Shown in pieces: positions 3,265-54,514 of a stretch of 64,000 nucleotides of DNA (within the stretch, counting starts at the first letter, position 1; each line of letters starts with the position of its first letter). Below the pieces are notes generated by a model. It was not told the origin of the DNA, did not search any database, and saw only the letters and a program-made list of their open reading frames with translations. Source of the DNA: a phage; sequence record PZ452591.1; one strand, 5' to 3'. The position numbers were made by a program, and so were the translations under genes.

Positions 3265-3500
3265 AGTACGCCATACACCCTTTGTGCTTCAACTAATCCA
3301 TCAAAATCCAGTTTAAGATGCGATATTTGATCGCCATCACCTGGATTCACAATTACTAATACTGAACGAGGAGTTTCGGTAATAACACGAACCGATGTTT
3401 CAGGAAATCGTTCAGAAACCTTATTTACTAATTCCTGTGCAAATAGTTTAACTTTTTCTTGGAATTCTTTAACAGTAATTGGTTTTTCACTTAGCAGCAT
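3261..3500 (-). CDS. hypothetical protein, 79 aa
   Basis: ORF track; ATG at 3498-3500. Confidence 0.55.
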   Translation of the reverse strand: MLLSEKPITVKEFQEKVKLFAQELVNKVSERFPETSVRVITETPRSVLVIVNPGDGDQISHLKLDFDGLVEAQRVYGVL

Positions 3501-4021
3501 GTTGATCCCAGCTCCTTACTTTCAACGTTTTTAACTAATTTGACAGAAACTAATTCAGCATCTTGAGTAATCATTACCGGACCTTCTTCATACTCTTCAA
3601 GATATTCTAGAGCTTTCTTTTTAGCTTCTTCCTTCGTATCAGTTTGAGCATAGATATAAAACATACAACCAGTAATACCTACTACTTTCCACTTAATTTC
3701 TTTATCAGTTTTAATTTCAAATTTACTGACAGAATCATCTTTTTGAACTTCTTCGAAAAAAGAATATTCTAACATATAAGCAATTGAAAATAACGGGCTA
3801 TCTTTATAGCATTCACCCATTACATCAACAGCTTTATACCAGCAGTCATCAATTTCGCGTTTAATGCTAATAACATTTTTCGCAAGATCTATTTTTACTT
3901 TAAATGAATTTTCCCCAATAAACTGGGCAATTCGTTTATTAGCCCCGCAAGTTTCATTAAAAATATCTTTATACCCAGTTTTAAAGCGATAAACCTTATC
4001 TTCTTCAAACCATTCGCTCAT
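3491..4021 (-). CDS. hypothetical protein, 176 aa
   Basis: ORF track; ATG at 4019-4021. Confidence 0.6.
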   Translation of the reverse strand: MSEWFEEDKVYRFKTGYKDIFNETCGANKRIAQFIGENSFKVKIDLAKNVISIKREIDDCWYKAVDVMGECYKDSPLFSIAYMLEYSFFEEVQKDDSVSKFEIKTDKEIKWKVVGITGCMFYIYAQTDTKEEAKKKALEYLEEYEEGPVMITQDAELVSVKLVKNVESKELGSTCC

Positions 4022-4083
4022 TTCAATTTCCTCATTTGTTTTGGTAGAGCTATAATATCACAACTCTACCGTAAAGTAAACCA

Positions 4084-6531: not shown

Positions 6532-7028
6532 AAAGTTTTAATAACCTCTATAATATCGTCTTGAGAAAGACCGTTAATTAAAATATGATGTTCAGCTGGA
6601 GATTTAGAAATTTTAAAGCATGCCTCAACATCTTCTGCCATATCCGATGCACTACGATTTGGATTACTAATTCCAAGACGATGTTTTCCCGTTAAAGGAT
6701 TAACAATGATATAGCATTTGCAGCTATTGATATGAACATTGGGTTGAGTCTGATTAATGAACACTTCACAATCATACTTAGCGAGTTGATTTTCTAAAAA
6801 GACTTTCATCTCTTCAACCGCATCAGGAAGCATATCACGGGCTTGCTCAAGACGACGATTTCGATATTCTTTAATGGTCGTTTTCCGCTTGACTTGCTTA
6901 GCTAAATCTTTCTTAAGATCGGTGATATATCCAACTCGACGATTTCCTTTGAATACAGAAATCCCATCTGTAGTATCACCGTATGCTTCAACGACCATTT
7001 CAATAGTAATAAGCTGCAAATCCATCAT
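6522..7028 (-). CDS. alc: Alc, inhibitor of host transcription on cytosine DNA, 168 aa
   Basis: size and position between pseT.x ORFs and rnlA match T4; sequence recognised from memory only. Confidence 0.7.
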   Translation of the reverse strand: MMDLQLITIEMVVEAYGDTTDGISVFKGNRRVGYITDLKKDLAKQVKRKTTIKEYRNRRLEQARDMLPDAVEEMKVFLENQLAKYDCEVFINQTQPNVHINSCKCYIIVNPLTGKHRLGISNPNRSASDMAEDVEACFKISKSPAEHHILINGLSQDDIIEVIKTLCM

Positions 7029-7089
7029 AAAGTCCTCATGTTATGCCAGTAAGACTACTGTAACACAACACGAGGGACTTGTAAACAGC

Positions 7090-8704: not shown

Positions 8705-9883
8705 TTAAAAGTATTTTTTAAAACTCATCATAACTTTATCATCAACATCATTATCAATCTGTGCAACAAGGTAGGATGACAGTTCTACTTCTTGTGGTGC
8801 GGATTGAACATTATCAGAATTAAGATATTCACGAATCCAAGGATATGGATGTTTAACCGGAGCATCGGTAATTGGGCATGGAAGACCACACTGTTTCATA
8901 CGAGATACAGTTAAGTAATCAATAAAGCTCCACATGCTATTTGTATTTAATCCAGGAACATCGCCATCTTTAAATAAATGAACTGCCCAATCTTTTTCTT
9001 GGCGATTAACTTCCATGAAAATATCAACTGCTTCTTGTTCACACTCTTGAGCAATTTTAACCCATTCATCGCCATCAGTGCCAAGTTGAAGTTGACGAAT
9101 AATATATTGAGTGCCTTTAAGATGAAGCTGCTCATCACGAGCAATGAACTTCATAATCTTGGCATTACCTTCCATGATTTCCATGTTCTTATGGAAGTTA
9201 AAGGTACATGCAAAAGATACATAAAAACGAATAGCTTCTAAGGCATTAATAACGTGCAAACAGAGGTAAAGAGACTTCATTAAAGCACGTTTAGCTTCGG
9301 CTTCTTGTTTAATAGCTCGGTTTAAACGAAAGTCGGCATCAGGAGATTCTTTAGCTAGTTCTACAAATTCTTTAGCATTTTCCCATTCACGGGTTTTAGT
9401 CAGAACATCATCATAATAACGTCCAATTGATTCAGCACGTTTCATAATAGCTTCATCTAATACAATCTCATCAAATACCTTCGATGGATCAGTATAAAGA
9501 TTTCGCATGATATGAGTATATGAACGACTGTGAATAGTTTCACTAAAAGTCCATGTAGCAACCCATGTATCAAGACTTGGGTCTGAAATTAATGACATAA
9601 GTACAGCAGATGGCGCACGACCCTGAATGCTATCCAAAAGTGATTGATACTTCAGGTTGTTAGTAAAAATATTTTGCTGATATTGAGGAAGCTTATTAAA
9701 CTGTGCAGCATCCATCATTAAGTTTACTTCTTCGGGACGCCAGAAAAATGATAAGGACTTCTCTGTAAGTTCTTCAAATACTCGATGCCGTTGAATATCA
9801 TAACGCGCAATACCAAGACCTGAACCAAAAAACATAGGTTCTTTTAAAACATCAACTGGATTTGTATTAAAAACTGTGCTCAT
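8705..9883 (-). CDS. nrdB: ribonucleotide reductase small subunit, 392 aa, uninterrupted
   Basis: ATG at 9881-9883; single continuous ORF with no intron. Confidence 0.92.
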   Translation of the reverse strand: MSTVFNTNPVDVLKEPMFFGSGLGIARYDIQRHRVFEELTEKSLSFFWRPEEVNLMMDAAQFNKLPQYQQNIFTNNLKYQSLLDSIQGRAPSAVLMSLISDPSLDTWVATWTFSETIHSRSYTHIMRNLYTDPSKVFDEIVLDEAIMKRAESIGRYYDDVLTKTREWENAKEFVELAKESPDADFRLNRAIKQEAEAKRALMKSLYLCLHVINALEAIRFYVSFACTFNFHKNMEIMEGNAKIMKFIARDEQLHLKGTQYIIRQLQLGTDGDEWVKIAQECEQEAVDIFMEVNRQEKDWAVHLFKDGDVPGLNTNSMWSFIDYLTVSRMKQCGLPCPITDAPVKHPYPWIREYLNSDNVQSAPQEVELSSYLVAQIDNDVDDKVMMSFKKYF

Positions 9884-9934
9884 AAATTTTCCGCTTAGTT
9901 AATAGTTGGTGACTCGTCCGTGAGTCAAATTATA

Positions 9935-12199
9935 TCATAATTTACAGGATGAACAATCTTCAGCTTTTGGAGTTTCTATTTCATAATCATCAGTACCAGA
10001 ACCATCACGGGTATTATGATAATAGAAATTTTTAATGCCATAATACCATCCGTATAGCATGTCATCAATCATTATTGACATTGGAACCTTTCCTTTTGGA
10101 AAAATCTGCGGGTCATAGTATGTATTCGCTGAAGCTGATTGACATACCCATTTCAGCATAATAGCTACCTGTGTAAGATAAGGTTTATTACCTTTCTTAG
10201 CTAATTTCCATGTATAATCATAGAGGTCTATGTTATGCTCAATATTGGGCACGACTTGATTAAAGGAGCCCTCTTTTGATTCTTTAACAGAGACTGGTCC
10301 ACGTGGAGGCTCGATACCGTTTGTACTGTTAGAAACTTGGGAAGATGACTCACATGGCATAAGTGCTGATAATGTGCTATTACGGATGCCAAAGAGCTTA
10401 AGGTCTTCCCGCAGCGACGACCAGTCACAAACGTATTTTGGAGCTGCGATTTGGTCAATCTTTTTATTGTACCAGTCGATAGGTAATTCGCCTCGAGACC
10501 AACGAGTGTCTGAATAATATTCGCAAGGTCCTTTTTCTTTGGCGAGCTTAATGGATGCTTTAATGAGTCCATACTGTAATCTCTCAAATAGTTCATGTGT
10601 TAAATCGTTAGCATCTTCATAAGAAGCAAAGTTACTTGCCAGCCAAGCTGCATAGTTGGTAACACCTACACCGAGGTTACGACGCTTTTTAGCTTTTTCT
10701 GCTTCAGGAACTGGATATCCTTGGTAATCCAAAAGATTATCAAGAGCACGAACTTGAACTTCTGCCAATTCATTAATTTTATCTTGGTCTTGCCAGTCAA
10801 AATTATCTAGTACGAATGCAGATAACGTGCACAAGCCAATTTCAGCATCGGGGCTATTCACATCATTTGTTGGAATAGCAATTTCACAACATAAGTTACT
10901 CTGACGAATAGGTGCCTTTTCACGAATAAACGGAGTATAGTTATTCGTATTATCAATGAACTGTACATAAATCCTTGCTGTTCCTGAACGTTCAGTCATG
11001 AGCAATTCAAATAGTTCACGGGCTTTAATACGCTTTTTACGAATATTAGGGTCTTTTTCTGCTGCTTCGTATAATTCACGGAAACGGTCTTGGTCTTTAA
11101 AATAAGAATAATAAAGTTCTCCACCCATTTCATGCGGACTGAACAAAGTGATGTAATCGTTCTTTCCGAATCGTTCCATCATCAAATCATTCAGCTGAAC
11201 ACCATAATCCATATGACGAATGCGGTTTTCTTCTACACCTTTGTTATTTTTCAAAACGAGAAGATTTTCAACTTCCAAATGCCAAATAGGATAATAAGCA
11301 GTAGCAGCGCCGCCACGAATTCCACCCTGTGAGCATGATTTAACAGCAGTCTGAAAATGTTTCCAAAAAGGAATAACACCAGTATGGCGTACTTCACCCA
11401 TGCCAATCTTAGAACCTTCGGCGCGAATCATACCAACGTTAATACCAATTCCAGCGCGTTTAGAGATATATTCAACAATTGAAGCAGAAGCCTTATTGAT
11501 AGACTTCAATGAATCTCCTGCCTCAATAACAACACATGAACTAAACTGTCGAGTCGGAGTACGGCAACCAGCCATAATAGGAGTTGGCAGTGAAATCTGT
11601 CGAGTAGATACTGCTTCATAAAAACGAATAACATGTTTTAATCTATCAACAGGTTCATCTTGATGCAATGCCATTCCAATAGTCATAAATGCAAACTGTG
11701 GAGTTTCATAAATTTGACCAGTGGTTTTATCTTTAACTAGATATTTTTCTTTCAATTGCATCGCCCCGGAATAAGTAAATTCCATATCCCGCTCGTGTTT
11801 AATTTTTGATTCTAAAAATGTAATTTCTTCTGCTGAATATTTTGACAATAATTCAGGGTCATATTTACCTTCATTTACACAGTAAGAAATATGGTCAATA
11901 AATGAACGTGGTTCATACTGCCCATAAACATGCTTACGAAGAGCAAACATTAAACAACGTGCAGCTACATATTGATAATCAGGTTCTTCAACCGAAATAG
12001 AATTCGCAGCAGCCTTAATGACAATAGTCTGAATGTCATCAGTTGTCATTCCATCACGGAGATATGATTTAATATTTTCATATAATTCATAAGGATCTAC
12101 TGATGTTCCCTCAGATGCCCAAGATAAAACTTTAATAATTTTTTGTGGGTCAAAGCTCTGAGAAACACCACTACTTTTGATAACATTAATTAATTGCAT
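9935..12199 (-). CDS. nrdA: ribonucleotide reductase large subunit, 754 aa
   Basis: ATG at 12197-12199; [21 protein letters not shown]... matches recalled T4 NrdA. Confidence 0.93.
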   Translation of the reverse strand: MQLINVIKSSGVSQSFDPQKIIKVLSWASEGTSVDPYELYENIKSYLRDGMTTDDIQTIVIKAAANSISVEEPDYQYVAARCLMFALRKHVYGQYEPRSFIDHISYCVNEGKYDPELLSKYSAEEITFLESKIKHERDMEFTYSGAMQLKEKYLVKDKTTGQIYETPQFAFMTIGMALHQDEPVDRLKHVIRFYEAVSTRQISLPTPIMAGCRTPTRQFSSCVVIEAGDSLKSINKASASIVEYISKRAGIGINVGMIRAEGSKIGMGEVRHTGVIPFWKHFQTAVKSCSQGGIRGGAATAYYPIWHLEVENLLVLKNNKGVEENRIRHMDYGVQLNDLMMERFGKNDYITLFSPHEMGGELYYSYFKDQDRFRELYEAAEKDPNIRKKRIKARELFELLMTERSGTARIYVQFIDNTNNYTPFIREKAPIRQSNLCCEIAIPTNDVNSPDAEIGLCTLSAFVLDNFDWQDQDKINELAEVQVRALDNLLDYQGYPVPEAEKAKKRRNLGVGVTNYAAWLASNFASYEDANDLTHELFERLQYGLIKASIKLAKEKGPCEYYSDTRWSRGELPIDWYNKKIDQIAAPKYVCDWSSLREDLKLFGIRNSTLSALMPCESSSQVSNSTNGIEPPRGPVSVKESKEGSFNQVVPNIEHNIDLYDYTWKLAKKGNKPYLTQVAIMLKWVCQSASANTYYDPQIFPKGKVPMSIMIDDMLYGWYYGIKNFYYHNTRDGSGTDDYEIETPKAEDCSSCKL

Positions 12200-12756: not shown

Positions 12757-13617
12757 TTACACCGCCATCTTTCCTTTAATTGGCGGGTGAGATACATAGT
12801 TGTTAAGAACAAAATTATGCGGCTTTGCGAATTGACTCAACCAAAATACCTGCGATTCTGTGTCCCATTCATCAAATTCATCTGGAAATTTTAATTGCAA
12901 TTCGCATAAATCCATAGGTTCACGACGCAAAATTTCTTTACATTGTTCTACGTGATTCATATAGATATGAGTATTACCACCAGAAAATATCAAATCTCCA
13001 GGAATAAGATTACACATCTTAGCTACAATATGAACTAACGTAGCATATGATGCAATATTAAATGGAAGACCGAGGAAAACATCTACCGAACGTTGATACC
13101 ACTGCAAATCCAAATAGCCATTACGCACATTAAACTGATAGAACATATGACAAGGCGGTAATGCCATATATTTAAGTTCAGCTGGATTCCATGCAGAAAC
13201 AATTTGACGCCTATCATTTGGCAATTTTTTAATACGATCAACAACTTCTATAATTTGGTCTACACCGCCAAAATCGCGCCATTGTTTTCCATAAATTGGA
13301 CCAAGTTCACCGCTATGGTATCCTAAATCTTTTGCTTGATTTTCGTAATTTTCATCCCAGACTGTTTTGCCTTGAATTAATGAATCATGTTGAATTAATC
13401 GTAAATCATTGACATTTGTGCTTCCCGATAAAAACCATATTAGCTCAGCAATGCAAGCTTTCCAGGCGAGCTTCTTAGTTGTTACTGCAGGAAAACCTTT
13501 AGTTAAATCCCAGCGTAATTTAGTACCGAACAAAGCAATTGTTCCTGTGCCCGTTCGGTCATCGGTTTCATAGCCATTTTCAAAAATGTCTTTAATTAAA
13601 TCTTGGTATTGTTTCAT
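12757..13617 (-). CDS. td: thymidylate synthase, 286 aa, uninterrupted
   Basis: ATG at 13615-13617; continuous 286-aa ORF, no intron or I-TevI-like ORF. Confidence 0.93.
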   Translation of the reverse strand: MKQYQDLIKDIFENGYETDDRTGTGTIALFGTKLRWDLTKGFPAVTTKKLAWKACIAELIWFLSGSTNVNDLRLIQHDSLIQGKTVWDENYENQAKDLGYHSGELGPIYGKQWRDFGGVDQIIEVVDRIKKLPNDRRQIVSAWNPAELKYMALPPCHMFYQFNVRNGYLDLQWYQRSVDVFLGLPFNIASYATLVHIVAKMCNLIPGDLIFSGGNTHIYMNHVEQCKEILRREPMDLCELQLKFPDEFDEWDTESQVFWLSQFAKPHNFVLNNYVSHPPIKGKMAV

Positions 13618-13662: not shown

Positions 13663-14010
13663 TCAATACGGTTTAGCATCAAATTTTCTCTCAATTTCAG
13701 GCGTGAAATATAATTCTTTACCGCGTTTGGAAAAGCGACCAATAATATGATAATTATTCTCATCAAACGTAATATTACCAATATCCATAGCTTTCAACCA
13801 AATATCGATATTTCTATCCAGCTTTATGTCAAAATTCCAATACGGAGAACTATTACCGAAAATACTGCAAGCGGATTCAGTGAAACAGCTACTATAAATC
13901 TTGTCTTTAGGAACTACTAATTGATAGACACCTTTAATAAACTGAGGACCCTGCCACTTTGGCTGTTTCGCGTCTTCTTCTAATAGAATAGGGTAATAAT
14001 TAAAATTCAT
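13663..14010 (-). CDS. hypothetical protein, about 115 aa, between frd and td
   Basis: in-frame ATG at 14008-14010; fills the space between frd stop (14031) and td start (13617). Confidence 0.5.
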   Translation of the reverse strand: MNFNYYPILLEEDAKQPKWQGPQFIKGVYQLVVPKDKIYSSCFTESACSIFGNSSPYWNFDIKLDRNIDIWLKAMDIGNITFDENNYHIIGRFSKRGKELYFTPEIERKFDAKPY

Positions 14011-14030
14011 ATTTTCCGTCACGCGTTATT

Positions 14031-14859
<829 letters not shown>

Positions 14860-15112: not shown

Positions 15113-15169
15113 TTTATTCTCCTCAAGTTGATAAGGCTATAGTATCATTACCATAGCCTGTTGTAACAT

Positions 15170-15397
15170 TTATTTTTGGATTAAGCCCATATAAAATTTA
15201 GCATCTTCAGGATACATGCCATCACAATACTCATTGGTCATAAAACTAATAAGGTCTTCAAGAGGACCTTGGACCTCAATTTGAATACTAAAGAATTGGG
15301 TATCTTTAATGTAAGCCATACTCAAAGAAGGATAACGATTGCGGATAACTTCGTAAGTGTATTCAAAATCAACAATATCAATATTAACCTTAGCCAT
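15170..15397 (-). CDS. hypothetical protein, about 75 aa, paralog A (frd.x family)
   Basis: ATG at 15395-15397 preceded by GAGGAAAATAA; about 50% identical to the 15880-16107 ORF. Confidence 0.55.
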
Positions 15398-15426
15398 TTT
15401 ATTTTCCTCATGTAGTTGATAGGGTA

Positions 15427-15456
15427 ATAGTATCACACTACTACCCTACTGTAAAC
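15427..15456 (-). promoter_or_regulatory. early promoter (-35 GTTTAC, 18-bp spacer, -10 TACTAT)
   Basis: minus strand GTTTAC at 15451-15456, TACTAT at 15427-15432; lies within an inverted repeat AGGGTA...TACCCT. Confidence 0.45.
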
Positions 15457-15836
15457 TACTTTTTGAAAGTTTTTCGCAAAAGTTCAATGATTTCATCTAC
15501 ATTGTTTTCATCTACAATGCAGTGAATTTTTATTACGCCAGAAACCGGGTCTTTGACTTCAACTTCTTCAGAAGTCGGTTCTTTATACTCACGAAAACAA
15601 TGAAATTCGTCTTCGCAAATTTCTAAAAGTCTATCTTTGAGGTAAAAATGCTTTCCATTTGCGCATTCAATGTGTTTTACTGCTTTATATCCATTAGCGA
15701 CGGAAACTTCTTTAACTTCAAACCATCCGCCATTATCTCGAATCGCTTTAACTATTGATGAATTAGAACGTGGGCTATAATTAATAAATGTATCAATAAG
15801 TCTTGGAACAAGTTCATACTTTTTGCCAATATACAT
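15456..15836 (-). CDS. hypothetical protein, 126 aa
   Basis: ORF track; ATG at 15834-15836. Confidence 0.55.
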   Translation of the reverse strand: MYIGKKYELVPRLIDTFINYSPRSNSSIVKAIRDNGGWFEVKEVSVANGYKAVKHIECANGKHFYLKDRLLEICEDEFHCFREYKEPTSEEVEVKDPVSGVIKIHCIVDENNVDEIIELLRKTFKK

Positions 15837-15879: not shown

Positions 15880-16107
15880 TTACTGTTCAATAAATCCTGT
15901 GTAAAATTCTACATCTTCAGCATCCATACCGTCGCAGTATTCATTAACCATAAACTGTTTAAGACGATTTAAAGGACCTTCAATAACAACTGAAACATTA
16001 CAATTAGGATCATTTAGTGCGCTTATGATACTAAGTTCAGGATAACGATTACGAATAATTTCTTCAATATATTCAAAATCAACAACATCAATATCAATTT
16101 TAGCCAT
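15880..16107 (-). CDS. hypothetical protein, about 75 aa, paralog B (frd.x family)
   Basis: ATG at 16105-16107 preceded by GAGGAAAATAAT; paralog of 15170-15397. Confidence 0.55.
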
Positions 16108-16150
16108 ATTATTTTCCTCTTTAATCATCAGCAGTATTGCCGATAGTTGT

Positions 16151-16180
16151 ATAGTACCATAAAGCTTTATGCTTGTAAAC
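16151..16180 (-). promoter_or_regulatory. early promoter cassette (-35 GTTTAC, 18-bp spacer, extended -10 TGG-TACTAT)
   Basis: copy of the recurring motif GTGGTACTATACAACTATC with upstream A/T-rich tract. Confidence 0.5.
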
Positions 16181-16204
16181 AGTTTTGTGAAAAAATTTTT
16201 TGAA

Positions 16205-16230
16205 ATAAAAAAAGGGACCTCTAGGGTCCC
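16205..16230 (-). terminator. intrinsic terminator after gene 32
   Basis: hairpin GGGACC-CUAGA-GGUCCC followed by U-run on minus strand, 24 nt past the gene 32 stop. Confidence 0.6.
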
Positions 16231-16253
16231 CGATTAATTAGTAATATAATCTG

Positions 16254-17159
16254 TTAAAGGTCATTCAAAAGGTCATCCAGGTCCGTGTCATCAGCACTAG
16301 ATGAACTGCCAGAGCTTGAGCTCATAAAATCATCTTCAGTTTTTGTTTTGAAGTCATCAACATTGAATGCATCCAAATCATCAGCAACTTTATCAGCTTT
16401 CTTAGCAGCAGTTGCAGCGGCACCGCCCATCACAGCAGTTCCCATAACTTGACCGAATTTAGTATTCAGTTCTTCAAACGATTTGAATTTATCTTTAGAA
16501 GTCATTTCAGAAAGGTCAACCATTTGTTCGAACAGTTCTTTCTGGAAAGATTCATCATCAATGTTTGGAATCGCAGATTGATTCAGGAATTTAGATTCGT
16601 CGTAGTTACTAAATCCAGAAACCTGTTTAACTTTCAGTACAAAGTTAGCACCTTCCCACGGGCAAGTTACATCAACCGGAGTTTCACCCATTTCGACATC
16701 AACCGCAATCATTGCATTGATTTTATCCCAGATTTTCTTACCGAAACGGTATTTAAATACTTTACCTTCGTTTTCTGGAGCAGCTGGGTCTTTTACAACA
16801 AGAATATTAGCCCAGTAAGAAGTTTTACGTTTAACAAGACTGTACTCTTTATTGTCAGTGTTGTACAGATCATTTTTACTGATGTATTGACATACTGGGC
16901 AAGAATCGTAATCACCATGGGTAGATGAACATGTTTCAATATACCATTTACCATTTTTCTTGAAACCGTGATTTACAAGAATTGCGAATGGTGCTTGTTC
17001 ATCATTTTTAGACGGAAGAAAACGAATTACTGCTTGACCGTTACCCGCATTATCGAGTTTCAGTTTCCACTCGCCTTTATCTTCAGAAGAAAAACCTTTA
17101 TTGCCATTCAGTTTAGCCATTTGTGCAGCAAGTTCAGCAGTAGATTTACGTTTAAACAT
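16254..17159 (-). CDS. 32: single-stranded DNA-binding protein gp32, 301 aa
   Basis: ATG at 17157-17159; matches recalled T4 gp32 including acidic C-terminal tail. Confidence 0.95.
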
Positions 17160-17215
17160 TTTATTTCCTTTTTAATTTAATTAACAGTTGGTGCTATGAC
17201 ACTTTACCTCATAGC
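17160..17215 (-). promoter_or_regulatory. gene 32 translational operator (hairpin/pseudoknot stem plus AU-rich unstructured leader)
   Basis: minus strand GCUAUGAGGUAAAGUGUCAUAGC inverted repeat followed by UUAAUUAAAUUAAAAAGGAAAUAAA-AUG. Confidence 0.6.
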
Positions 17216-17841
17216 TGGCATAATTCGCAATACTCTGGGTCTTCGAGAGGTATCCAACCTGAGTTGAAATACTTTACCATCGATTTAGCAGTTGTATCAG
17301 TTATATTTATATTACCTTTAACTCTTCGCCATCCAGGAGTTTTACCGTACAGATTAGAGGATAATAATAACTCATAATTCTCGTAAGCAATATGAGATAA
17401 TTTCCAAGACTCTATATTAGCTCGTGATGTTTTCCAAGGTCTAAAATCGTCACGGTTCATATAATTAGCCAATCTCATATGCTCTCTAACTTCCGGGTCT
17501 TTGGCTGGATGAGTTTCACCACTCACACCAAATCCACCACCAGCATATACCAGATTAAAATAGTCTGGATTATCTCTGGCATTTACTTCAAGTTGGTATT
17601 TTCGTTCTGCTTCAATAACATCCAAGTCATCATCAATTTGAATTATTTTAACGCTCGGTTTTTGAAGCATTAGCGCATTCAAAAATCTTTTTTGTTTACA
17701 TGAGCTCCAGTATTCCTTTCCGGAAGAGTCATATATTATTCCGTTCTCAAATGAGCAATTTAATTTACTACCGATATAGTAGTATGGCGGAGTCTTATTT
17801 TTGACACGGTCTTCAAATGTAAACCAATATACTATATTCAT
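17209..17841 (-). CDS. GIY-YIG family putative homing endonuclease (seg-like), 210 aa
   Basis: ATG at 17839-17841; N-terminal IVYWFTF...YYYIGS and downstream ERKYQLEVNARDN resemble the GIY-YIG catalytic core. Confidence 0.65.
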   Translation of the reverse strand: MNIVYWFTFEDRVKNKTPPYYYIGSKLNCSFENGIIYDSSGKEYWSSCKQKRFLNALMLQKPSVKIIQIDDDLDVIEAERKYQLEVNARDNPDYFNLVYAGGGFGVSGETHPAKDPEVREHMRLANYMNRDDFRPWKTSRANIESWKLSHIAYENYELLLSSNLYGKTPGWRRVKGNINITDTTAKSMVKYFNSGWIPLEDPEYCELCQL

Positions 17842-25164: not shown

Positions 25165-25815
25165 ATGGCTGATTTAAAAGTAGGTTCAACTGTAGGTGGA
25201 TCTGTCATTTGGCATCAAGGAAATTTTCCATTGAATTCAGCCGGTGACGATGTACTCTACAAATCATTTAAAATATATTCAGAATATAATAAACCGCAGG
25301 CAGCTGATAACGATTTCGTTTCTAAAGCTAATGGTGGTACTTACACCGGTCCAATTACTATTAATTACGGGGTAAATAGTTATCTTCAATTAAGTAATAA
25401 TGAAACCCCCATTCGAATTCGTTCTGGTGGCGGTACCGGTAATACTCTTGTAGTTGGTGGCTCTTCCGGCGGTATTAGTTTTAGACCTGCAGGTAGTGAA
25501 ATCACTACTGGACAAATTACTATTACACCAGAAGGTTTGACAACATTTACCAGGGCTGTAACGGCTCCATCGGTAACTGTTACATCTACTCCTTCCGCAG
25601 CATCTGATGTTACTCGTAAAGATTATGTTGATGGAGCAATAAATACTGTTACAGCAAATGCAAACTCTAGGGTATTACGCTCTGGAGACACTATGACAGG
25701 AAATTTAACTGCGCCAAACCTTTTTTCACAGAATCCTGCATCTCAACCTTCACACGTTCCACGATTTGACCAAATCGTAATTAAGGATTCTGTTCAAGAT
25801 TTCGGCTATTATTAA
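25165..25815 (+). CDS. 36: long tail fiber distal connector gp36, 216 aa
   Basis: ATG at 25165; synteny. Confidence 0.88.
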
Positions 25816-25823
25816 GAGGACTT

Positions 25824-28808
25824 ATGGCTACTTTAAAACAAATACAATTTAAAAGAAGCAAAACTGCAGGTCAACTTCCTGCTGCTTCAGTATTAGCCGA
25901 AGGTGAATTGGCTATTAATTTAAAAGATAAAACAATTTTCACAAAAGATGACTCAGGCAATGTTATAGAATTAGGTTTAAAATATGGAGGAACAATTGAT
26001 GGTTCTTTAACTGTTAATGGAAATATAATTGGAAATTTAACAGGTAACGCTGCAACTGCAACGAAATTAAAAACAGCACGAAAAATTAATGGTATATCCT
26101 TTGATGGGTCAAAAGATATCACGCTAACTCCATCTGACATAAATGTCAATAGCACAACGTTTATAAAAAATAATGGCGAATTACCTGTTGATGCTAATTT
26201 AGATACGTATGGGCCTGTTGAAGAATATCTTGGAGTTTGGTCGAAAGCAACTTCAACCAACGCTCAACCAGCAAATAAATTTCCAGAAGAAAATGCTGTA
26301 GGTGTGCTAGAAGTATTTGTGGCCGGTCAATTTGCTGGTACTCAGAGATATACAACTAGATACGGAAATGTTTATATTCGTTCCTTGACTGCTACATGGA
26401 ACGGAGTAAATGGTCCGTGGAGTGTGTGGCGAAATATTCAATCCGGTACTCGTCCACTGTCAACAACAATTGATCTTAATGATCTAGGAGGCGCTGAACA
26501 CTTTGGTTTGTGGCGAAATAGTTCAAATTCCATTGCTACCTTTGACAGAAATTTCCCAGAAGAGGGGTCGTCAGCTCAAGGTCTTTTGGAAGTATATGAA
26601 GGTGGAAACTATTCTCGTACACAAAGATATACAACCAGATTTGGTGTTGTATATACTCGTTGTCTTGCTGCCGCGTGGGATGCTTCCGCGCCTAAATGGG
26701 GACCGTGGCAACAAGTCGGTAATGTCACACCAGCGACTTTCTATGACGGAGATCTGAATGATTTTAAAACCCCTGGGTTATATAATATTTTAGGCACTGA
26801 TGCCGTTATTAACTGTCCTACAGGTGAAGGTTTGCCGACTGTTATTGTTGGTTTGCTGGAAGTTAAACAACGTGCTTCTGGCGGTGCTATTTTCCAAAAA
26901 TTTACTACTGCCGGAACGGGTGCAACTACTCGCGATCGTATTTTTGAGCGTGCATATACTGGTGGTGTGTGGGGTGCATGGAACGAAGTATATACATCTT
27001 ACTCTCTGCCAATTACTTTAGGTATGGGTGGTATTAAAACTCAATTAGCGGAGCTAGATTGGCAAACATTTGATTTTGTTCCTGGTAGTATGTTTAGCGT
27101 TCCTTTGAACAAAATAAAGAACATGCCAGCTAATATGAATTGGGGCACGATTGACGGAAACTTAATTATGTTTTCTGTTGGTCCTAGCGAGCACACCAGC
27201 ACAGGACGTACTGTTCAGGTTTGGCGTGGAACTGTATCCCAGACAAACTATCGTTATTTTGTCGTTCGTGTGTTCGGTAATTCTGGAAATAGAACTTGCA
27301 CAGTTCGCCGTGTTGTTCTTGAAGACGGATCACATACTTGGACTGCTAAACAAGATTTTAATGGCGCAGTTAACTTCGGTGCTCCTACCAATTTTAACTC
27401 TACTGTTAACCTTAATAACACTACCACATTTAAAACAGAAGTTAAATTTCGCTCATTGAATGCATTCCGTATGTATGGCGGAAAATTTGGTACATTTTTA
27501 CGTAATGATGGAGAGAGTCTTTATATTCTTTCCACCGACGAAGATGATCAAGATGGAAACTTTAATACAAATAGACCTTTCCGTTATGAATTAAGAACTG
27601 GTGATGTTACTTTGGGTGGTGCTAGTGGTGCTAACGTTTTAAAATTAAAACGTGATTCTCTCACCGCATTTTTTGGCGGTGATATTAACATTAAAGGCAC
27701 GATGACTTTTGACGCCGGACGTTTAGGATCACGAGATTATTTTAAATTTAACCATTGGGGTGATAGTAATAATGCGCGTGATAACATTATTCAGTTAGAA
27801 GACAGCAAAGGCGCTCATTTTTCCACTGAACGTACTTTAGCGACTGGTGCAATTAAGACTAAATTTTTTGGTGAAATTGAATCCGATGGTAAATTGGTTA
27901 TTAAACGTCCGGGTGATTCTATTGTATTATCAACAACTGCTAGTAATTCTTTGCATATTCGTGGTGACATAGACGGGACTGGTAACTGGTATATTGGTAA
28001 GGGTGGTGCTGATAATGGATTAGCGTTATATAGTTATGCTACTAATGCTGGTGTATACATTACAAACGCAGGAGATATCACGCTAAGTCCAAAAGGCGTC
28101 GAAATGGCCCATGTCAATAACGTTCGATTATATGTTCATGGTGAACGTTGGACTGCTAGTCAACCAGGTGATTGGGGTAGTCAGTGGCAAGTGGAAGCGC
28201 CAATATTCGTCGATCATGGTTATGTTTCACAGGATTGTTATTATCCAATTATTAAAGGAAGAAGTGTAATCACCAATCAAGGGTTTGTAACTGCCGTCGA
28301 TCTTGGTATTCGTCGTGTCAATAACAATTGGGGACAAGCAATTATTCGTGTTGGATCTGCGGAGGCATCGCCAGCGGCTGGACACCCTAACGCGGTATTT
28401 GAATTTCATTACGACGGTACTTTCTATTCTCCTGGTAATGGTAACTTTAACGATGTGTATATTCGTTCCGATGGTCGTCTTAAGATTAATAAAAAAGAGC
28501 TAGAAAACGGAGCACTTGAAAAAGTATGCCGACTGAAAGTTTATACATACGATAAGGTTAAGTCTATTAAAGATCGTAGTGTTATTAAACGTGAAGTTGG
28601 TATTATTGCTCAGGATCTTGAAAAAGAATTACCGGAAGCTGTGTCTAAAGTTGAAGTTGATGGATCTGATGTTCTGACAATTTCTAACTCTGCTGTGAAT
28701 GCTCTTTTAATTAAGGCTATTCAGGAAATGAGTGAAGAAATTAAAGAATTGAAAACGCCTCTCTTTACTAAAATTGCTCGCAAAATTAGTAAATATTTTA
28801 AATTCTAA
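25824..28808 (+). CDS. 37: long tail fiber distal subunit gp37, 994 aa, with C-terminal intramolecular chaperone-like domain
   Basis: ATG at 25824; conserved N-terminus; C-terminal about 110 aa resembles a tail-fiber/endosialidase-type self-cleaving chaperone domain. Confidence 0.9.
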
Positions 28809-28814
28809 CAACAA

Positions 28815-28832
28815 GGGGGAAATGCCCCCTTT
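28815..28832 (+). terminator. hairpin GGGGG-AAAUG-CCCCC with short U-run after gene 37
   Basis: 5-bp G/C stem directly after the gene 37 stop. Confidence 0.45.
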
Positions 28833-28844
28833 GGAGTATAAATT

Positions 28845-29636
28845 ATGGCAGTAGTTGGAGTTCCTGGCTGGATTGGAAGTTCAGCCGCAAATGAAACAGG
28901 ACAACGCTGGATGAGTCAAGCGGCTGGTCAATTAAGATTGGGTGTTCCTTGCTGGATGAGTCAATTTGCAGGTCGCTCACGAGAAATTATTCACACGCTT
29001 GGAGCAGACCATAACTTCAATGGTCAATGGTTCCGAGATAGATGTTTTGAGGCAGGTAGTGCACCTATAGTGTTTAATATTACAGGTGATTTAGTATCAT
29101 ATTCTAAAGATGTTCCTTTATTCTTCATGTACGGAGATACACCAAATGAATATGTTCAGTTAAATATACATGGCGTAACGATGTATGGTCGTGGAGGTAA
29201 TGGTGGTAGCAATAGTCCTGGCTCAGCTGGGGGTCATTGTATTCAAAATAATATTGGTGGGAGACTAAGAATTAATAATGGCGGAGCTATTGCTGGCGGC
29301 GGTGGCGGCGGTGGCGGCGGCTACTGGAATGCCGGTATAACGAGATATAGATCTGTTGTTGGTGGCGGTGGCGGACGTCCATTTGGGGCGGCTGGCGGGT
29401 ATTCTGGAGGATCAGCTTCTACCGCGGGCACTTTGACTGGGGCGGGCATTGGTTCTAAACCGGGAAATGCGATTTATGGTGGAAACGGAGGAAATGTGGG
29501 ATCTGCTGGTGGAGCTTGTGGCGGAATCTCAGGCTCTCGTTATGCTCGTTATGGTGGCGGCGCTGCTGGTTATGCTGTCATAGGGTCCGCTCCAACATGG
29601 CAAAATGTTGGAGCAATATATGGTCCAAGAGTATAA
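28845..29636 (+). CDS. 38: tail fiber tip adhesin gp38 (T2/T6-type, glycine-rich motifs), 263 aa
   Basis: ATG at 28845; several Gly-rich blocks ([59 protein letters not shown]) as in T2-type gp38 adhesins. Confidence 0.85.
29295..29321 (+). repeat. (GGC/GGT)9 trinucleotide tract encoding Gly9 inside gene 38
   Basis: ggcggcggtggcggcggtggcggcggc read directly from the sequence. Confidence 0.9.
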
Positions 29637-29666
29637 TGTGAATAAATACCCTTAAAAGGAGGGTCT

Positions 29667-32415: not shown

Positions 32416-33051
32416 TCACAGTTCAGATGCTACAGCGATTACTGCTTCAATGTTTTCTGCTGAGCGTTTAATGTCAAGATACACATTACCGTTTTTAGCG
32501 ATTTTACATGACATTCCGATATCAGTAAATTTCTGAATATGATGTTCCATCATTTTGTATCCAAAAATTCGCATATTTCCATTATTGTTAATTTCAAAAT
32601 TACGAATTCCGTGAGTACGTTTTTCTAAAATAGCGAGATAGTTACTGCGGTAAGTTTCAACCTTTTTAAGAACAAATCCATTTTCATCTAAAAGTTTTAA
32701 CATGAGGTCTTTATCTTCTTCCATATCAGAAGTAATCTCACGAGCTTTACGAGTTGCTCGTTTTTTCAGAAGTTCCGGAGCATTTTCCTGTGCGTATAAA
32801 GTTGCTGCGTTTGAAATAATATCCTGGGCTTCACCTGTAATGATTAAACCATCACCAGATTTCTCCACCAGGCCTTTTTTAATCAATACCCCAATATTAC
32901 TATTAACTACTGCGTTACCTAAATCTGGATGCACCTCACGAACTTCTGCAGCTGTAATGAAATCTTTCTTAGCAATAGTAATTAAAATCGCAGCAGTTTT
33001 TTCATTCAGAACATCGTTAGAAGCTTTGATGATGTAAGTTACTTTAGACAT
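32416..33051 (-). CDS. motA: middle-transcription activator MotA, 211 aa
   Basis: ATG at 33049-33051; matches recalled T4 MotA. Confidence 0.9.
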   Translation of the reverse strand: MSKVTYIIKASNDVLNEKTAAILITIAKKDFITAAEVREVHPDLGNAVVNSNIGVLIKKGLVEKSGDGLIITGEAQDIISNAATLYAQENAPELLKKRATRKAREITSDMEEDKDLMLKLLDENGFVLKKVETYRSNYLAILEKRTHGIRNFEINNNGNMRIFGYKMMEHHIQKFTDIGMSCKIAKNGNVYLDIKRSAENIEAVIAVASEL

Positions 33052-33092
33052 TTTCTAATCTCCGTAATTCTGTATCAGTAGTTGATAGTTGT

Positions 33093-33122
33093 ATAGTACC
33101 ACAGTATGCTTTGGTTGTAAAC
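33093..33122 (-). promoter_or_regulatory. early promoter cassette upstream of motA
   Basis: minus strand GTTTAC at 33117-33122, 18-bp spacer, extended -10 TGG-TACTAT at 33093-33101. Confidence 0.55.
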
Positions 33123-33146
33123 CGTTTTGTGAAAAAATTTTTAAAT

Positions 33147-33174
33147 AAAAAAAAGGGAGAGCCTCGGCTCTCCC
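33147..33174 (-). terminator. intrinsic terminator GGGAGAGCC-GAG-GCUCUCCC plus U-run
   Basis: 8-9 bp stem with A8 run on the plus side, downstream of the 52/52.1 transcription unit. Confidence 0.6.
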
Positions 33175-33179
33175 TAAAA

Positions 33180-34957: not shown

Positions 34958-35044
34958 TCAACTATTTTTAAAACCTAAAATACCGAAGTTTTTAAGATTG
35001 TTACGATAGAACTGCATCACATGTTCGTTATGGAAATTACTCAT
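34958..35044 (-). CDS. stp: Stp peptide (activator of host PrrC anticodon nuclease), 28 aa
   Basis: minus [31 protein letters not shown]; N-terminal 18 residues match my recollection of T4 Stp; ATG at 35042-35044. Confidence 0.6.
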
Positions 35045-35209
35045 ATATACCACACATTTTGCATAAACGTTCAAAACAGATATATCCACCACCAAAACAC
35101 ATCACTATAGCAACTTTATCATTAAATGGAGCACCAAAGGCCATAAAGGCTCCGACCATTGTGAATAAAACTAAAACAAATATATAACCCGTTACGAATA
35201 GACGTTTCA

Positions 35210-35668
35210 TTAGTAAGCCTGCAGGATGAATTTAAAGTTATCAGCCAACATACGGTTCATTTCTTCAAGTGTTTGATACTCAGAATGATGATTACGAGTA
35301 AACGCCAAAGCTAACTGACCTTTTCCAAATCCTGTCGTCAATGGTTTCATCTTAGAAGCAGGCAGATAAAATACTGTGTATGGAACATTGTTATTTGCAA
35401 TAGTACGCGCAAGCTGAGACCGACGCTGACGAATATGACTTAGAACCGCACTGAATCCTTGCTTAGAACGCTGATTACCTACATAAAATCGTGCGGACAC
35501 GCACGGATTACTAAATGGACGACCATCTAATTTACTCACTAAAAAGTAAAATCCAGGTTTAGATAAAATATCTTTATGCGGAGTTCCCAAAAACCACTCA
35601 CCGCCCTTGATTGTACCAATAACAGTAGCGCCTGCATTATTCAGATCAGTAACAGTCATATATTTCAT
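35210..35668 (-). CDS. ndd: nucleoid disruption protein Ndd, 152 aa
   Basis: start set at ATG 35666-35668 ([18 protein letters not shown]...) with GAGGA Shine-Dalgarno; track ORF has a 16-codon upstream extension. Confidence 0.85.
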
Positions 35669-36264: not shown

Positions 36265-36378
36265 TCACATAAATCCAAAGTAAGCGTTTAATACATCAAT
36301 CATTAAAACGATTGGGAATATACTCAAAACTATTAGTATTATAACTACATTCCATATAGCTTTAACAATCTTTTTCAT
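36265..36378 (-). CDS. small membrane protein, about 37 aa
   Basis: in-frame ATG at 36376-36378; the track ORF N-terminal extension reads through the promoter cassette. Confidence 0.35.
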   Translation of the reverse strand: MKKIVKAIWNVVIILIVLSIFPIVLMIDVLNAYFGFM

Positions 36379-36406
36379 TTTCTGTTCCTCCGTAGTTGAT
36401 AGTTGT

Positions 36407-36436
36407 ATAGTACCACAGAGGAACAGTCTTGTAAAC
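36407..36436 (-). promoter_or_regulatory. early promoter cassette
   Basis: GTTTAC at 36431-36436, 18-bp spacer, TGG-TACTAT; recurring motif. Confidence 0.5.
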
Positions 36437-36624
36437 AACTTTTTTTTTAAAAATATTCGTAATAAATGTGAATACCAACTACTACCGCTGAAACTTGCAC
36501 AACCCACCACGCACAAGCAATAAGTACAGAATTCAAAATTTTCATAATAACCTCATCACAAAAGTAAATGTTAAACAAATTACTGGAATACTAATTAACC
36601 AAACAAAACACCACCACAATGAAC

Positions 36625-36888
36625 TCATAGTTCAATCTCAACGATTTTCATTTCATTACTATTAATAGCCGCTTTAAGACTATCTGAAAGAATTACATTC
36701 CAGTGGTCATTCATATGACCATTAACTAAGCGTGTAATTTCTTCAGGAGTTGAAAAATAAGGCTGATCAGACTCCCAATGCGATAATCCTAAGCGAGTAT
36801 AAATCATGCCTTCATCATCGCTAGAATATTCAACTGACACAAACTCATCAGTTATTTTATGCTTAGCATAATAAAATTTAAATTTCAT
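36625..36888 (-). CDS. hypothetical protein, about 87 aa
   Basis: in-frame ATG at 36886-36888; track ORF extension crosses the promoter cassette. Confidence 0.5.
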   Translation of the reverse strand: MKFKFYYAKHKITDEFVSVEYSSDDEGMIYTRLGLSHWESDQPYFSTPEEITRLVNGHMNDHWNVILSDSLKAAINSNEMKIVEIEL

Positions 36889-36922
36889 TTTACTCTCCAA
36901 ATCCGTATCAGTTGATAGTTGT

Positions 36923-36952
36923 ATAGTACCACGGTCCTTGTGGTATGTAAAC
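36923..36952 (-). promoter_or_regulatory. early promoter cassette
   Basis: GTTTAC at 36947-36952, 18-bp spacer, TGG-TACTAT. Confidence 0.5.
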
Positions 36953-36968
36953 CGTTTTGTGAAATTTT

Positions 36969-37526
36969 TTAAATGGAAAGATACCATCCGTTGTAGTTGC
37001 TTTTTCTTACAACCTTACGAAGGTCTTCTCTGTCACCGATGAACTTCGGAGTGTACTGGATGACACCTGGATGAATTTCTTTAGTGTTGAATATAATTAT
37101 ACAGTCAGCGACTTGATGATTTAGAATAGGCCCTAGATTTATTCCAGAACCATATGGATACTCTCCGCTGCATCCTGTTGTTACAGAAATCCAACGTGAG
37201 TCAGTTTGATGTGTCTTAACTTCTACACGAAGCCCACAGTATTTTGGATGCGCTAATACATCCCATGCATATGTGTACGGATCATCGACATCTTCTTGGC
37301 CTTTATTGACATATCCGCTTAGCCAATCTGCCACAAAAAACTCTGCGTACACAGCGATACGGCATCTTTCGATAACTTCTGCTTTATCCTGGTTCGGGTT
37401 TTGTTTTAAAGAGTATCTTACTGTATCAGCAATTTTGACCTTCATTTCACTAGTCAAGTCACTGTTCGATAGGGTAAATGTCGGAATCTGAAATAGTCTC
37501 TGTAAACCCGGATTCGTTTTCTGCAT
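36969..37526 (-). CDS. denB: endonuclease IV DenB, 185 aa
   Basis: ATG at 37524-37526; size and position between ndd.x ORFs and rIIB. Confidence 0.85.
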   Translation of the reverse strand: MQKTNPGLQRLFQIPTFTLSNSDLTSEMKVKIADTVRYSLKQNPNQDKAEVIERCRIAVYAEFFVADWLSGYVNKGQEDVDDPYTYAWDVLAHPKYCGLRVEVKTHQTDSRWISVTTGCSGEYPYGSGINLGPILNHQVADCIIIFNTKEIHPGVIQYTPKFIGDREDLRKVVRKSNYNGWYLSI

Positions 37527-41231: not shown

Positions 41232-43049
41232 CTACTGGCTCATCCATTCTTTACGAAGGTCAGCATTATCTCCCATGAGCATTTCAAAAAGCTCTTTCCA
41301 GTTCTCAGGAAGTTTAACAACATCATATACTGGATTTTGAATCATCTCACGATATTCAGATTTTTCCAAAGAGCCAAGTCCTTTAATATAACGGATGCTA
41401 TGTTTAGGTAGAGCATCTTTAGCACTCTCATATTCAGCGACTGTATAAAACCATTCTTGTTTTTTACCAATCTGTGCGATGATTACAGGAGTTTTGACAA
41501 AGCGAATTCGTCCTTGCTCAAACAGTTCTGGCCAATTACTAAAAAATCCAAGCAGAGAAGGATAAATGCTTCCTAGACCATCATGGTCAGCATCAGTCAT
41601 AATAGCAATATTATGATAATTCAAGTTTTCAGCTTTTTCACCGAGAACTAATCCAGTGATTGCGCAAATATCAAATAGTTCTTTGTTTTTAAGCATATCT
41701 GCATAAGACATACCCCAGCTATTAAGAACTTTACCACGCAATGGATAACCACCGTGAAGTTCTTTATCACGAACATCAATAAGATATCCGATAGCAGAAT
41801 CACCCTCAGTCAAGAAAAGAGTAGTGTCAGCATCTTTACCACAAAGATTCGCTTTGATATGTTTATGAACCTTAGCTTTAGAAGCCTTTTTAGCTGCTTT
41901 AGTTTCTGCTGCTTTTTCTGCCGCCAATTTACGAGCCAAAGCAGCTTCAATAATCGGCATCAGAATTGCTTCATTATTCAAAATAGCACGTGAAATCTTT
42001 TTAGCATCAAGCTGAATATGACTACGGATTTCACCAAATGGAGAAGTCAAACGCTCTTTAGTCTGAGAATCAAATCGCATGTTTTTCATATCACGAACAA
42101 ACATAACGATAGTCAAACATTCTTTGACACGTGCTTTAGTCACATCAATTTTGAACTTACGTTTGATTTGTGGAATAAGGTCTTCACAAATATCATCCAT
42201 AACACAGTCAATGTGATGGCCACCATTCTTAGTATGAATGTTATTAACGTATGTTAATTGACGAAAACCATCCGGTGAACGACCAACTGCAATAGAACAA
42301 TTTTCTTGTTCTTGAACAATAGCATGCTCATCATATTGGCGTGCATATTTCTTAAAATTGCCCTGAACCTTTTTACCATTAAAGGTAAATTGAATATCAG
42401 GATAAACTACTGCAAGTGTCTGGAGACGGTCCAGTGTAATGTCAAGATAAACCTGAGACAGCTCATTAGTTTCAAATGACATAAAATCAGGAATGAAAGT
42501 AACACGAGTTCCTTTCCATTTTCCAGGAATAGTTTCCCATGATTTATTTTCCATGCCATTTGAACAACGAACTACAATATTATTTTGACCATCACCAGTT
42601 TCACCGACAAACATCACAGAAAAAATGTTTGTCAAACTAGAACCAACACCATTCATACCACCGGTGACACGTTCTTTATCATCACCAAAGTTACCACCTG
42701 CTTTTGGAATAGTCCATGCAGCAACAGGACCAGGAATTTCTTCACCGGTAGGTGTTTTGACCATCGCTTGTGGAATACCGCGACCGTTATCTTCAACTGT
42801 TACTTGATTGTTTTTAATAGTAACATTAATTTTATTTGCGAATTTAAACTTAGTACGAATACCTTCATCTACTGAGTTATCGATAATTTCATCAATAAGC
42901 TTAACAAGACCAGGTACATACTGAACACTTTCCCATTTACCAAACAGAAAGCGCTCATGCATTTCATTAGCAGAAGAGCCGATGTACATGCCACTGCGCT
43001 TTTTGATATGTTCAATATCGCTCAGAATTTTAATTTCATTCTTAATCAT
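41232..43049 (-). CDS. 39: topoisomerase II large (ATPase) subunit, contiguous 605 aa (equivalent to T4 gp39 plus gp60)
   Basis: ATG at 43047-43049; one uninterrupted ORF spanning GHKL ATPase and Toprim regions. Confidence 0.9.
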   Translation of the reverse strand: MIKNEIKILSDIEHIKKRSGMYIGSSANEMHERFLFGKWESVQYVPGLVKLIDEIIDNSVDEGIRTKFKFANKINVTIKNNQVTVEDNGRGIPQAMVKTPTGEEIPGPVAAWTIPKAGGNFGDDKERVTGGMNGVGSSLTNIFSVMFVGETGDGQNNIVVRCSNGMENKSWETIPGKWKGTRVTFIPDFMSFETNELSQVYLDITLDRLQTLAVVYPDIQFTFNGKKVQGNFKKYARQYDEHAIVQEQENCSIAVGRSPDGFRQLTYVNNIHTKNGGHHIDCVMDDICEDLIPQIKRKFKIDVTKARVKECLTIVMFVRDMKNMRFDSQTKERLTSPFGEIRSHIQLDAKKISRAILNNEAILMPIIEAALARKLAAEKAAETKAAKKASKAKVHKHIKANLCGKDADTTLFLTEGDSAIGYLIDVRDKELHGGYPLRGKVLNSWGMSYADMLKNKELFDICAITGLVLGEKAENLNYHNIAIMTDADHDGLGSIYPSLLGFFSNWPELFEQGRIRFVKTPVIIAQIGKKQEWFYTVAEYESAKDALPKHSIRYIKGLGSLEKSEYREMIQNPVYDVVKLPENWKELFEMLMGDNADLRKEWMSQ

Positions 43050-43104
43050 CACTTATCCTCGTTTGGTTTCGGGAATATTATACTCCGGTAATCATAAAGC
43101 TAAA

Positions 43105-44472: not shown

Positions 44473-44569
44473 TTTATTCTCCAAGTTGTTTTCTGTATCA
44501 GTAGTTGATATTGATATAGTACCATAATCAACTACTGATGTATATAGTTTTATGAAAAAATTTTAAACT

Positions 44570-54502: not shown

Positions 54503-54514
54503 TAAGGAGGACAT

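Follow-up and report, generated by a model that had tools for sequence, protein, structure and literature searches.

The six cassettes and their genome context

On the minus strand of this phage genome a short cassette lies between the terminator of gene 32 and the start codon of an frd.3 homologue, and it recurs at five further loci of the window, by which we mean the whole stretch of DNA that was analysed (64,000 nucleotides of record PZ452591.1). An unbiased repeat search returned one family, which consists of six 77-nt copies and includes the diverged copy at 44.5 kb (Table 1). All six are co-oriented, as minus-strand promoters 5' of minus-strand ORFs, and leaders of 22–37 nt set their distance to the early genes that follow. 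The half-motif GTTGATAGTTGTATAGTACCAC was found with at most three mismatches at positions 16139, 33081, 36395, 36911 and 62817 (0 expected from 100 shuffles), and the other half-motif at 16174, 33116 and 62852 (0 expected by chance). The repeated cassettes that the first-pass annotation had placed at six or more loci were thus recovered at all six sites, and "or more" also holds, as the window also holds two closer relatives (15412–15464 and 15124–15176) and, in the general class, ~15 more early promoters.

The copies had been called near-identical, a wording that proved too strong. Ungapped identity among the six over positions −62 to +20 is 55–74%, with a mean of 65%, and conservation is confined to certain blocks, namely the UP tract (62%), the −35 element, TGG-TACTAT (100%) and the 12 nt past the −10 element (84% within the subclass versus 34% in 13 other early promoters of the window that were used for comparison). 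The spacer and the distal leader, at 38% and 34% identity, are near the random level of 27%, particular pairs excepted.

The window is part of a Tequatrovirus (T4-like) genome with ~96% identity to phages such as SH-2, UFV-AREG1 and JK23. It is colinear with T4, running from T4 ~130 kb through the rIIB/rIIA origin (window ~38775) to T4 ~28 kb, and its genes are on the minus strand except for a plus-strand late tail-fibre block. Compared to T4, it lacks the nrdB and td introns, nrdB.1/mobE, segF and the gene 60/mobA insertion, gp39 being encoded by one fused 606-aa ORF (41232–43052), and a different 282-aa ORF stands in place of the T4 segA/beta-gt segment. A T4 stretch of ~900 bp that includes the dam methyltransferase gene (T4 16846–17625) has no counterpart at window 54483–54504, and therefore the phage appears to be without dam. 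The distal tail-fibre genes (25343–29642, plus strand) differ from those of T4, with little or no nucleotide match in genes 36–38. Within this region, ORF 28845–29636 (263 aa, plus strand) contains repeated glycine-rich GGCGGTGGCGG tracts (repeat family D4), which suggests that it encodes a T2/PST-type gp38 adhesin and not a T4-type gp38 chaperone. Further small minus-strand ORFs that are absent from T4 are found at 3491–4021, 13663–14022, 14605–14859, 35037–35210 and 47409–47669; the first of these lies directly behind the orthologue of the T4 early promoter Pe133295 and has an indel junction at its Shine-Dalgarno (SD) sequence/ATG.

Table 1. Positions in the window of the cassettes, of stem-loops beside or within early promoters and of sites that differ from T4. 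The gene that each cassette is predicted to drive is given, followed for cassettes 1–6 by the orthologous site in T4.
Feature	Position	Strand	Parts	Predicted gene, T4 site or remark
Cassette 1	16105–16202	minus	77-nt repeat 16126–16202; UP 16184–16200; −35 GTTTAC 16175–16180; spacer 16157–16174; −10 TACTAT 16151–16156 after TGG; predicted start A 16144; SD GAGG; ATG 16105–16107	frd.3 homologue (ORF 15880–16107, 75 aa); T4 146875
Cassette 2	33049–33144	minus	77-nt repeat 33068–33144; UP 33126–33142; −35 33117–33122; −10 33093–33098; predicted start 33086; SD GGAG; ATG 33049–33051	motA (32416–33051); T4 163673
Cassette 3	36376–36458	minus	77-nt repeat 36382–36458; −35 36431–36436; −10 36407–36412; predicted start 36400; ATG 36376–36378	ndd.4-like 37-aa membrane peptide (36265–36378); T4 166807
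Cassette 4	36886–36974	minus	77-nt repeat 36898–36974; −35 36947–36952; −10 36923–36928; predicted start 36916; SD GGAG; ATG 36886–36888	87-aa ORF (36625–36888, phrog_2390), lost from T4; T4 167086
Cassette 5 (diverged)	44470–44567	minus	77-nt repeat 44491–44567; −35 ATATAC (degenerate) 44540–44545; −10 44516–44521; predicted start 44509; SD/RegB-type GGAGAATAAAA; ATG 44470–44472	89-aa ORF (44203–44472, phrog_3720) between motB and cef, deleted in T4; T4 6630
Cassette 6	62792–62880	minus	77-nt repeat 62804–62880; UP 62862–62878; −35 62853–62858; −10 62829–62834; predicted start 62822; SD GGAG; ATG 62792–62794	imm.1 (62414–62794); T4 27080
Related cassette A	15395–15464	minus	GTTTAC-N18-TACTAT-TACCCTATCAAC	extra frd.3 paralogue (15170–15397)
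Related cassette B	15113–15176	minus	−35 damaged: GTTACA for GTTTAC	5' of frd.1
Gene 32 intrinsic terminator	16206–16231	minus	GGGGACC...GGUCCC + U-run	MFE −12 kcal/mol; annotated "terminator" in fPS-90
Intrinsic terminator after motA.1	33154–33175	minus	9-bp GC-rich stem + U8	MFE −18.7 kcal/mol, z −4.4
Early-promoter hairpins	7000–7086, 36376–36436, 46190–46252, 51390–51453		5' arm spacer; loop −10; 3' arm start region/SD	
Further early-promoter hairpins	4020–4081, 15395–15456, 45060–45135, 57330–57389		same layout	
Sites differing from T4	9207–9210, 9883–9939, 13068–13069, 41567–41632, 53879–53925, 60332–61279			introns, insertions, segA

Promoter class and leader

In a minus-strand alignment, the six copies share the order A/T-rich tract, GTTTAC, 18 nt, TGG-TACTAT, ACAACTATCAAC, short leader, SD and ATG. 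The first-pass annotation had read the anatomy correctly from the A/T-rich tract through to the conserved block that follows the extended −10 element. The −35 element GTTTAC, at −36 to −31, is exact in five of the six copies (ATATAC in copy 5), while the extended −10 element TGG-TACTAT is found in all of them; the distance from GTTTAC to TACTAT is 18 nt, or 17 nt with the −35 element taken as TTTACA. All copies also contain AAAA at approximately −42 to −39, an A-rich/UP feature upstream of the −35 element. The full UP-element consensus of E. coli is AAAWWTWTTTTNNNAAA. The upstream block AAAAATTTTTTCACAAAA matches this consensus, and exact matches to AAAWWTWTTTTNNNAAA occur at only three places in the 64-kb window, in cassettes 1, 2 and 6, where they are within 1 nt of the canonical register.

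Lists of T4 early promoters (Pe) are reportedly to be found in Miller et al. 2003 and in Wilkens and Rueger. A scan for GTTTAC-N17/18-TGn-TAnnnT revealed ~20 promoters in the window, none of them on the plus strand; within this set the six copies form a tight subclass, TGG-TACTAT-ACAACTATCAAC. The same scan of T4 returned the same promoter set, including orthologues of all six copies (Table 1), and further subclass members were found in T4 at nrdC.9, nrdC.10 and e.8. The T4 early consensus comprises GTTTAC at −36 to −31, an A-rich UP region at −40 to −44, a GT-rich/TGn extension and a −10 element with T−12, A−11 and T−7 (PMC1524935), and T4 early promoters have been described as "uber" UP/−35/TGn/−10 promoters with extra consensus regions (Hinton 2010, PMC2988021). 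The window copies agree with T4 Pe in the GTTTAC −35, TGn, the −10 TAnnnT, the A/T-rich UP element and genomic position; there is no essential difference, and the window holds one phage's set of orthologues. The earlier assignment to the strong T4 early-promoter class is therefore borne out, with all defining sequence features present at sites orthologous to T4 early promoters.

The element is also conserved in relatives. The motA cassette is 100% identical to T4 163619–163695 over 77 nt, and the 77-nt element has matches in 566 phage records, at ~8 places per genome. Because there are orthologues in T4 and the element occurs in so many records, a lack of conservation in relatives, which the first-pass annotation had named as grounds for doubt, does not apply. 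In the records of the Yersinia phages fPS-2 and fPS-90, orthologous sites are annotated "predicted early promoter", with "terminator" before them. The GenBank T4 record AF158101 has no promoter features except for one note on Pe133295, and the six sites are unannotated there. A match in phiE142, a 121-kb phage, was considered as spread beyond T4-like phages and rejected, since phiE142 belongs to the Straboviridae. A generic sigma-70 scan did not discriminate in a genome this AT-rich (50 sites versus 66 expected), and the cassettes score only 9/12 in it because the T4 −35 element differs from TTGACA.

No transcription start-site or activity data for the six promoters were found in the literature searched (dRNA-seq, Cappable-seq, primer extension). 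From the arrangement of the motifs we infer that host RNA polymerase would bind the cassettes without a phage protein via four stacked recognition elements: the near-consensus UP element AAAAATTTTTTCACAAAA, for the alpha C-terminal domains, the −35 GTTTAC(A), the extended −10 TGn and the −10 TACTAT. The A of ATCAAC, 7 nt past the −10 element, is the predicted start site.

The leader that would result is 22–37 nt in length and contains a GGAG-type SD. The strong RegB/S1 cleavage consensus in early mRNAs is GG↓AGRAYARAA (PMC3014915), and both the conserved SD segment GGAGAATAAAATG and the leader GGAGAATAAAA correspond to it. Copy 5 matches it exactly (GGAGAATAAAA), and copies 2, 4 and 6 each differ from it at one position; copy 3 fits poorly and the motif is absent from copy 1. 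As the SD segment equals the RegB consensus, part of what had been called a conserved leader would be a joint ribosome-binding and RegB-inactivation signal. Moreover, since four of the six leaders fit or nearly fit the RegB/S1 consensus, the cassette is predicted to programme rapid inactivation of the early mRNA in addition to its synthesis.

Probable exchange of cassette parts and small genes

We pooled those cassettes of the window, T4 and IMG/VR contigs that have the exact core; the exact-core search of IMG/VR gave only 21 loci from ~7 contigs, which is too few for a population survey. In the pooled set the spacers are locus-specific, and whole units are common to distant loci with unrelated ORFs. 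In particular, the nrdC.9 and ndd.4 cassettes have the stretch from the −35 element through ATGAA in common, while their UP tracts and their ORFs and proteins differ. The leaders form discrete types that re-assort with the spacers, and the T4 nrdC.10 cassette is composed of the frd.3 spacer and the imm.1/ndd.6 leader. At the frd.3 locus the UP, −35 and −10 elements, the start region, the leader and the gene are constant across genomes and are combined with three different spacers, each of which resembles the spacer of another locus.

The frd.2-frd.1 interval shows five arrangements among relatives: cassette A; cassette B; A with a 22-aa ORF; A with an frd.3 paralogue and the damaged B, as in the window; and another ORF with B. 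The junctions between them are located in the UP/−35 block, in TATCAAC or in the SD leader. In the window, the extra frd.3 paralogue (75 aa, 15170–15397, phrog_1764) stands between frd.2 and frd.1 with cassettes A and B flanking it, and an indel junction relative to other phages lies inside the cassette A leader. This arrangement (15113–15464) was found in only one of 616 related records, that of phage VEc74.

Deletion and duplication endpoints in relatives, which the earlier annotation had proposed as a check, were looked for, and several ORF indels do end within cassette parts. Four of the ten window-versus-T4 indels that are unrelated to homing endonucleases end in a cassette, where 9% would be expected (p ~0.01), an enrichment that is confounded because whole-ORF indels must end intergenically, where promoters also lie. 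The ORFs behind cassettes 4 and 5 were lost from T4 by in-frame deletions at 4–8 nt microhomologies of the start-codon region with the 3' end of the ORF. Mini-ORF remnants were left in both cases: MKIAEIEL and a stop at ~T4 167018 from the 87-aa ORF and a 21-codon remnant at ~T4 6557 from the 89-aa ORF. Given these remnants, cassette-to-cassette recombination was rejected as the cause of the ORFs missing from T4 at 36.7 kb and 44.3 kb. Hence, of the proposal that long identical repeats act as recombination substrates in the gain and loss of small genes, the recombination part is supported by the re-assortment of spacers and leaders and by indel ends inside cassette parts; the description of the repeats does not hold, with conserved blocks of only 6–27 nt and with two T4 losses attributable to microhomology.

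The recombination idea is exactly the published hypothesis of the promoter-early stem-loop (PeSL) cassette, so termed by the Krisch group, a linker through which small ORFs in hyperplastic regions would be inserted, deleted and exchanged. The hypothesis was demonstrated for RB49/phi1 (Arbiol et al. 2010, PMC2839356), and a second paper carried it over to T4/PST, where the consensus is TTTACW-N17-TAYWAT (Comeau et al. 2014, PMC4122927). The window copies fit this T4/PST consensus, and an ndd.4/.5 exchange that was published in the second paper (PMC4122927) concerns the same region as window 36.3–37.0 kb. Like PeSLs, the cassettes consist of an AT-rich tract and an early promoter with an SD and a start codon at the 3' end, and they adjoin variable small ORFs, with indel or exchange junctions inside the element. 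The element has thus been described before, as a T4 early promoter and also as a recombination linker of the PeSL type. Promoter-containing repeats that flank the T-even internal-protein (IP) genes are attributed to Repoila et al. 1994 in both PeSL papers (PMC2839356, PMC4122927), as cited there; these too are T4 early-promoter-based elements repeated before interchangeable small genes. The IP loci are outside this window, and the T4 ipI and 57B promoters have the motif TACTAT-TACC(C/T)(T/C)ATCAA in common with cassette A.

Taken together, it is very probable that the cassettes are sigma-70 early promoters (Pe) with short 5' leaders, and that their likeness as a subclass arose by ectopic recombination or conversion as in the PeSL model. 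The likeness beyond what polymerase contacts need would stem from ectopic recombination or short-patch gene conversion between cassettes, and crossovers in the UP/−35, TATCAAC or SD-leader blocks would add, remove or swap the small ORFs behind them.

Stem-loops, Shine-Dalgarno pairing and competing explanations

Stem-loops are associated with the cassettes in two placements. The gene 32 terminator is located directly upstream of cassette 1, where its T-run extends into the UP element, and the terminator after motA.1 directly upstream of cassette 2, where its T-run merges with the UP element; both would insulate the cassettes behind them against upstream transcription. Cassettes 3 and 5 harbor a hairpin that has the promoter spacer as its 5' arm and the −10 element as its loop. 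In cassette 3, a duplex of −26 kcal/mol (z −7.5) is predicted between the spacer CUGUUCCUCUGUGG and the leader/SD CUACGGAGGAACAG, and in cassette 5 a 13-bp hairpin spans the −10 element, with a read-through fold of −20.2 kcal/mol. No significant stem-loops were found at cassettes 4 and 6. The "stem-loop" half of the PeSL definition thus applies only partly, since terminators are present at two of the six copies, −10-spanning hairpins at two and neither at the remaining two. Arbiol et al. described stem-loops between the −35 and −10 elements or overlapping the −10 element, which they read as attenuators (PMC2839356).

Pairing of the spacer with the start region or the SD was observed at many T4-type early promoters, beyond this subclass. 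When the untranscribed spacer plus −10 element was tested against the leader with RNAduplex, five of 19 window promoters (~1 expected) and ten of 33 T4 promoters (~1.7 expected) gave better pairing than shuffled spacers at p<0.05. At the hairpin promoters the read-through RNA is predicted to fold at −16 to −26 kcal/mol and the RNA from the own promoter at ~0. For alc, ndd.4, motB.2 and the promoter at 51453, the predicted fold of the read-through RNA has the entire SD paired, whereas the SD is free in that of the RNA from the proximal promoter. As judged by sequence inspection, the 12-bp ndd.4 helix of the window is preserved in T4, the differences between the two being C-G/U·G and G-C/G·U changes.

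This layout resembles the known SD-sequestration switches of T4 e, soc, 49 and I-TevI, which are relieved by a proximal late promoter (PMC3014915). Similarly, in cassette 3 and at a number of further early promoters, the 5' arm lies before the start site and the 3' arm over the SD, and only read-through RNA would hide the SD; in contrast to those genes, the embedded promoter is early, not late, and the effect here is a predicted one. An early-promoter version of the SD-sequestration switch is plausible, and the hairpins may gate translation according to the origin of the transcript. A more far-reaching reading is that UP, spacer, start-region and leader modules exchange by very short conversion tracts and that the spacer is recruited for pairing with the SD of its own gene, which would concern about a quarter to a third of T4 early promoters and gate their translation. 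We regard this as possible, with more doubt than confidence.

Alternatively, the start region and leader (ACAACTATCAAC...GGAGAATAAAATG) could be kept as a 5'-UTR RNA element, such as a RegB/S1 site, a translation enhancer or a stability determinant, and the likeness of the copies would then reflect convergent selection instead of descent or conversion. The equality of leader GGAGAATAAAA with the RegB strong-site consensus and the marked subclass conservation of the 12 nt past the −10 element are as such an element would predict. We nevertheless consider it unlikely. Spacers, which are untranscribed from their own promoter and unconstrained, are also common to distant loci and have been swapped at one locus, and this needs copying rather than convergence. 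The re-assortment of discrete leader types with spacers likewise speaks against it. In addition, an Rfam search returned no family anywhere in the window, and the leaders, taken from the predicted start sites, are essentially unstructured, with fold energies of 0 to −7.6 kcal/mol.

A primary role of the repeats as mobile elements or as sites of site-specific recombination (integron attC-like, or MITEs), served by a dedicated phage recombinase and with the promoter likeness secondary, is very improbable. Variable small ORFs are flanked by cassettes and indel junctions fall inside them, and Arbiol et al. raised a possible helper protein and detected mini-circles in RB49/phi1 (PMC2839356). The copies, however, have neither target-site duplications nor terminal inverted repeats, and a transposon reading was rejected on sequence grounds. 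All are co-oriented with transcription at a fixed distance to the SD and ATG, and their junctions are at varied places (UP/−35, ITS, SD), as expected of homology-driven and not of site-specific exchange. The same element, without change from one genome to the next, serves essential regulators such as motA, and these genomes have no known recombinase.

MotA/AsiA-dependent middle promoters or late promoters are hardly credible as a reading of the cassettes: the sigma-70 type −10 element with TGn is shared with about half of middle promoters (PMC2988021), but in middle promoters the −35 element is replaced by a required MotA box, (a/t)(a/t)(a/t)TGCTTtA, with its centre at −30 (PMC2988021, PMC1524935), whereas the cassettes have GTTTAC at −36 to −31 with no TGCTT at the MotA-box position in any of them, one drives motA itself, needed before MotA exists, and the late TATAAATA motif is absent.

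The early-promoter reading with PeSL-type exchange thus picks out a real regulatory class, one that the first-pass annotation had recognized from raw sequence, and its value is that of a confirmation. As a discovery it carries little weight, since catalogues of T4 early promoters go back decades and the papers on the PeSL linker role, which also cover T4's closest relatives, date from 2010 and 2014. What the comparison adds is clear-cut instances of module swapping, namely the three spacers of the frd.3 promoter and the five frd.2-frd.1 arrangements, and the caution that some gene losses beside cassettes are plain microhomology deletions. The pairing of promoter spacer and SD at many early promoters may deserve a small experimental follow-up. 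If the spacer-recruitment reading is true, only RNA from the proximal early promoter would be licensed for translation, read-through RNA being blocked, and the genes concerned would be restricted to the immediate-early window of infection.
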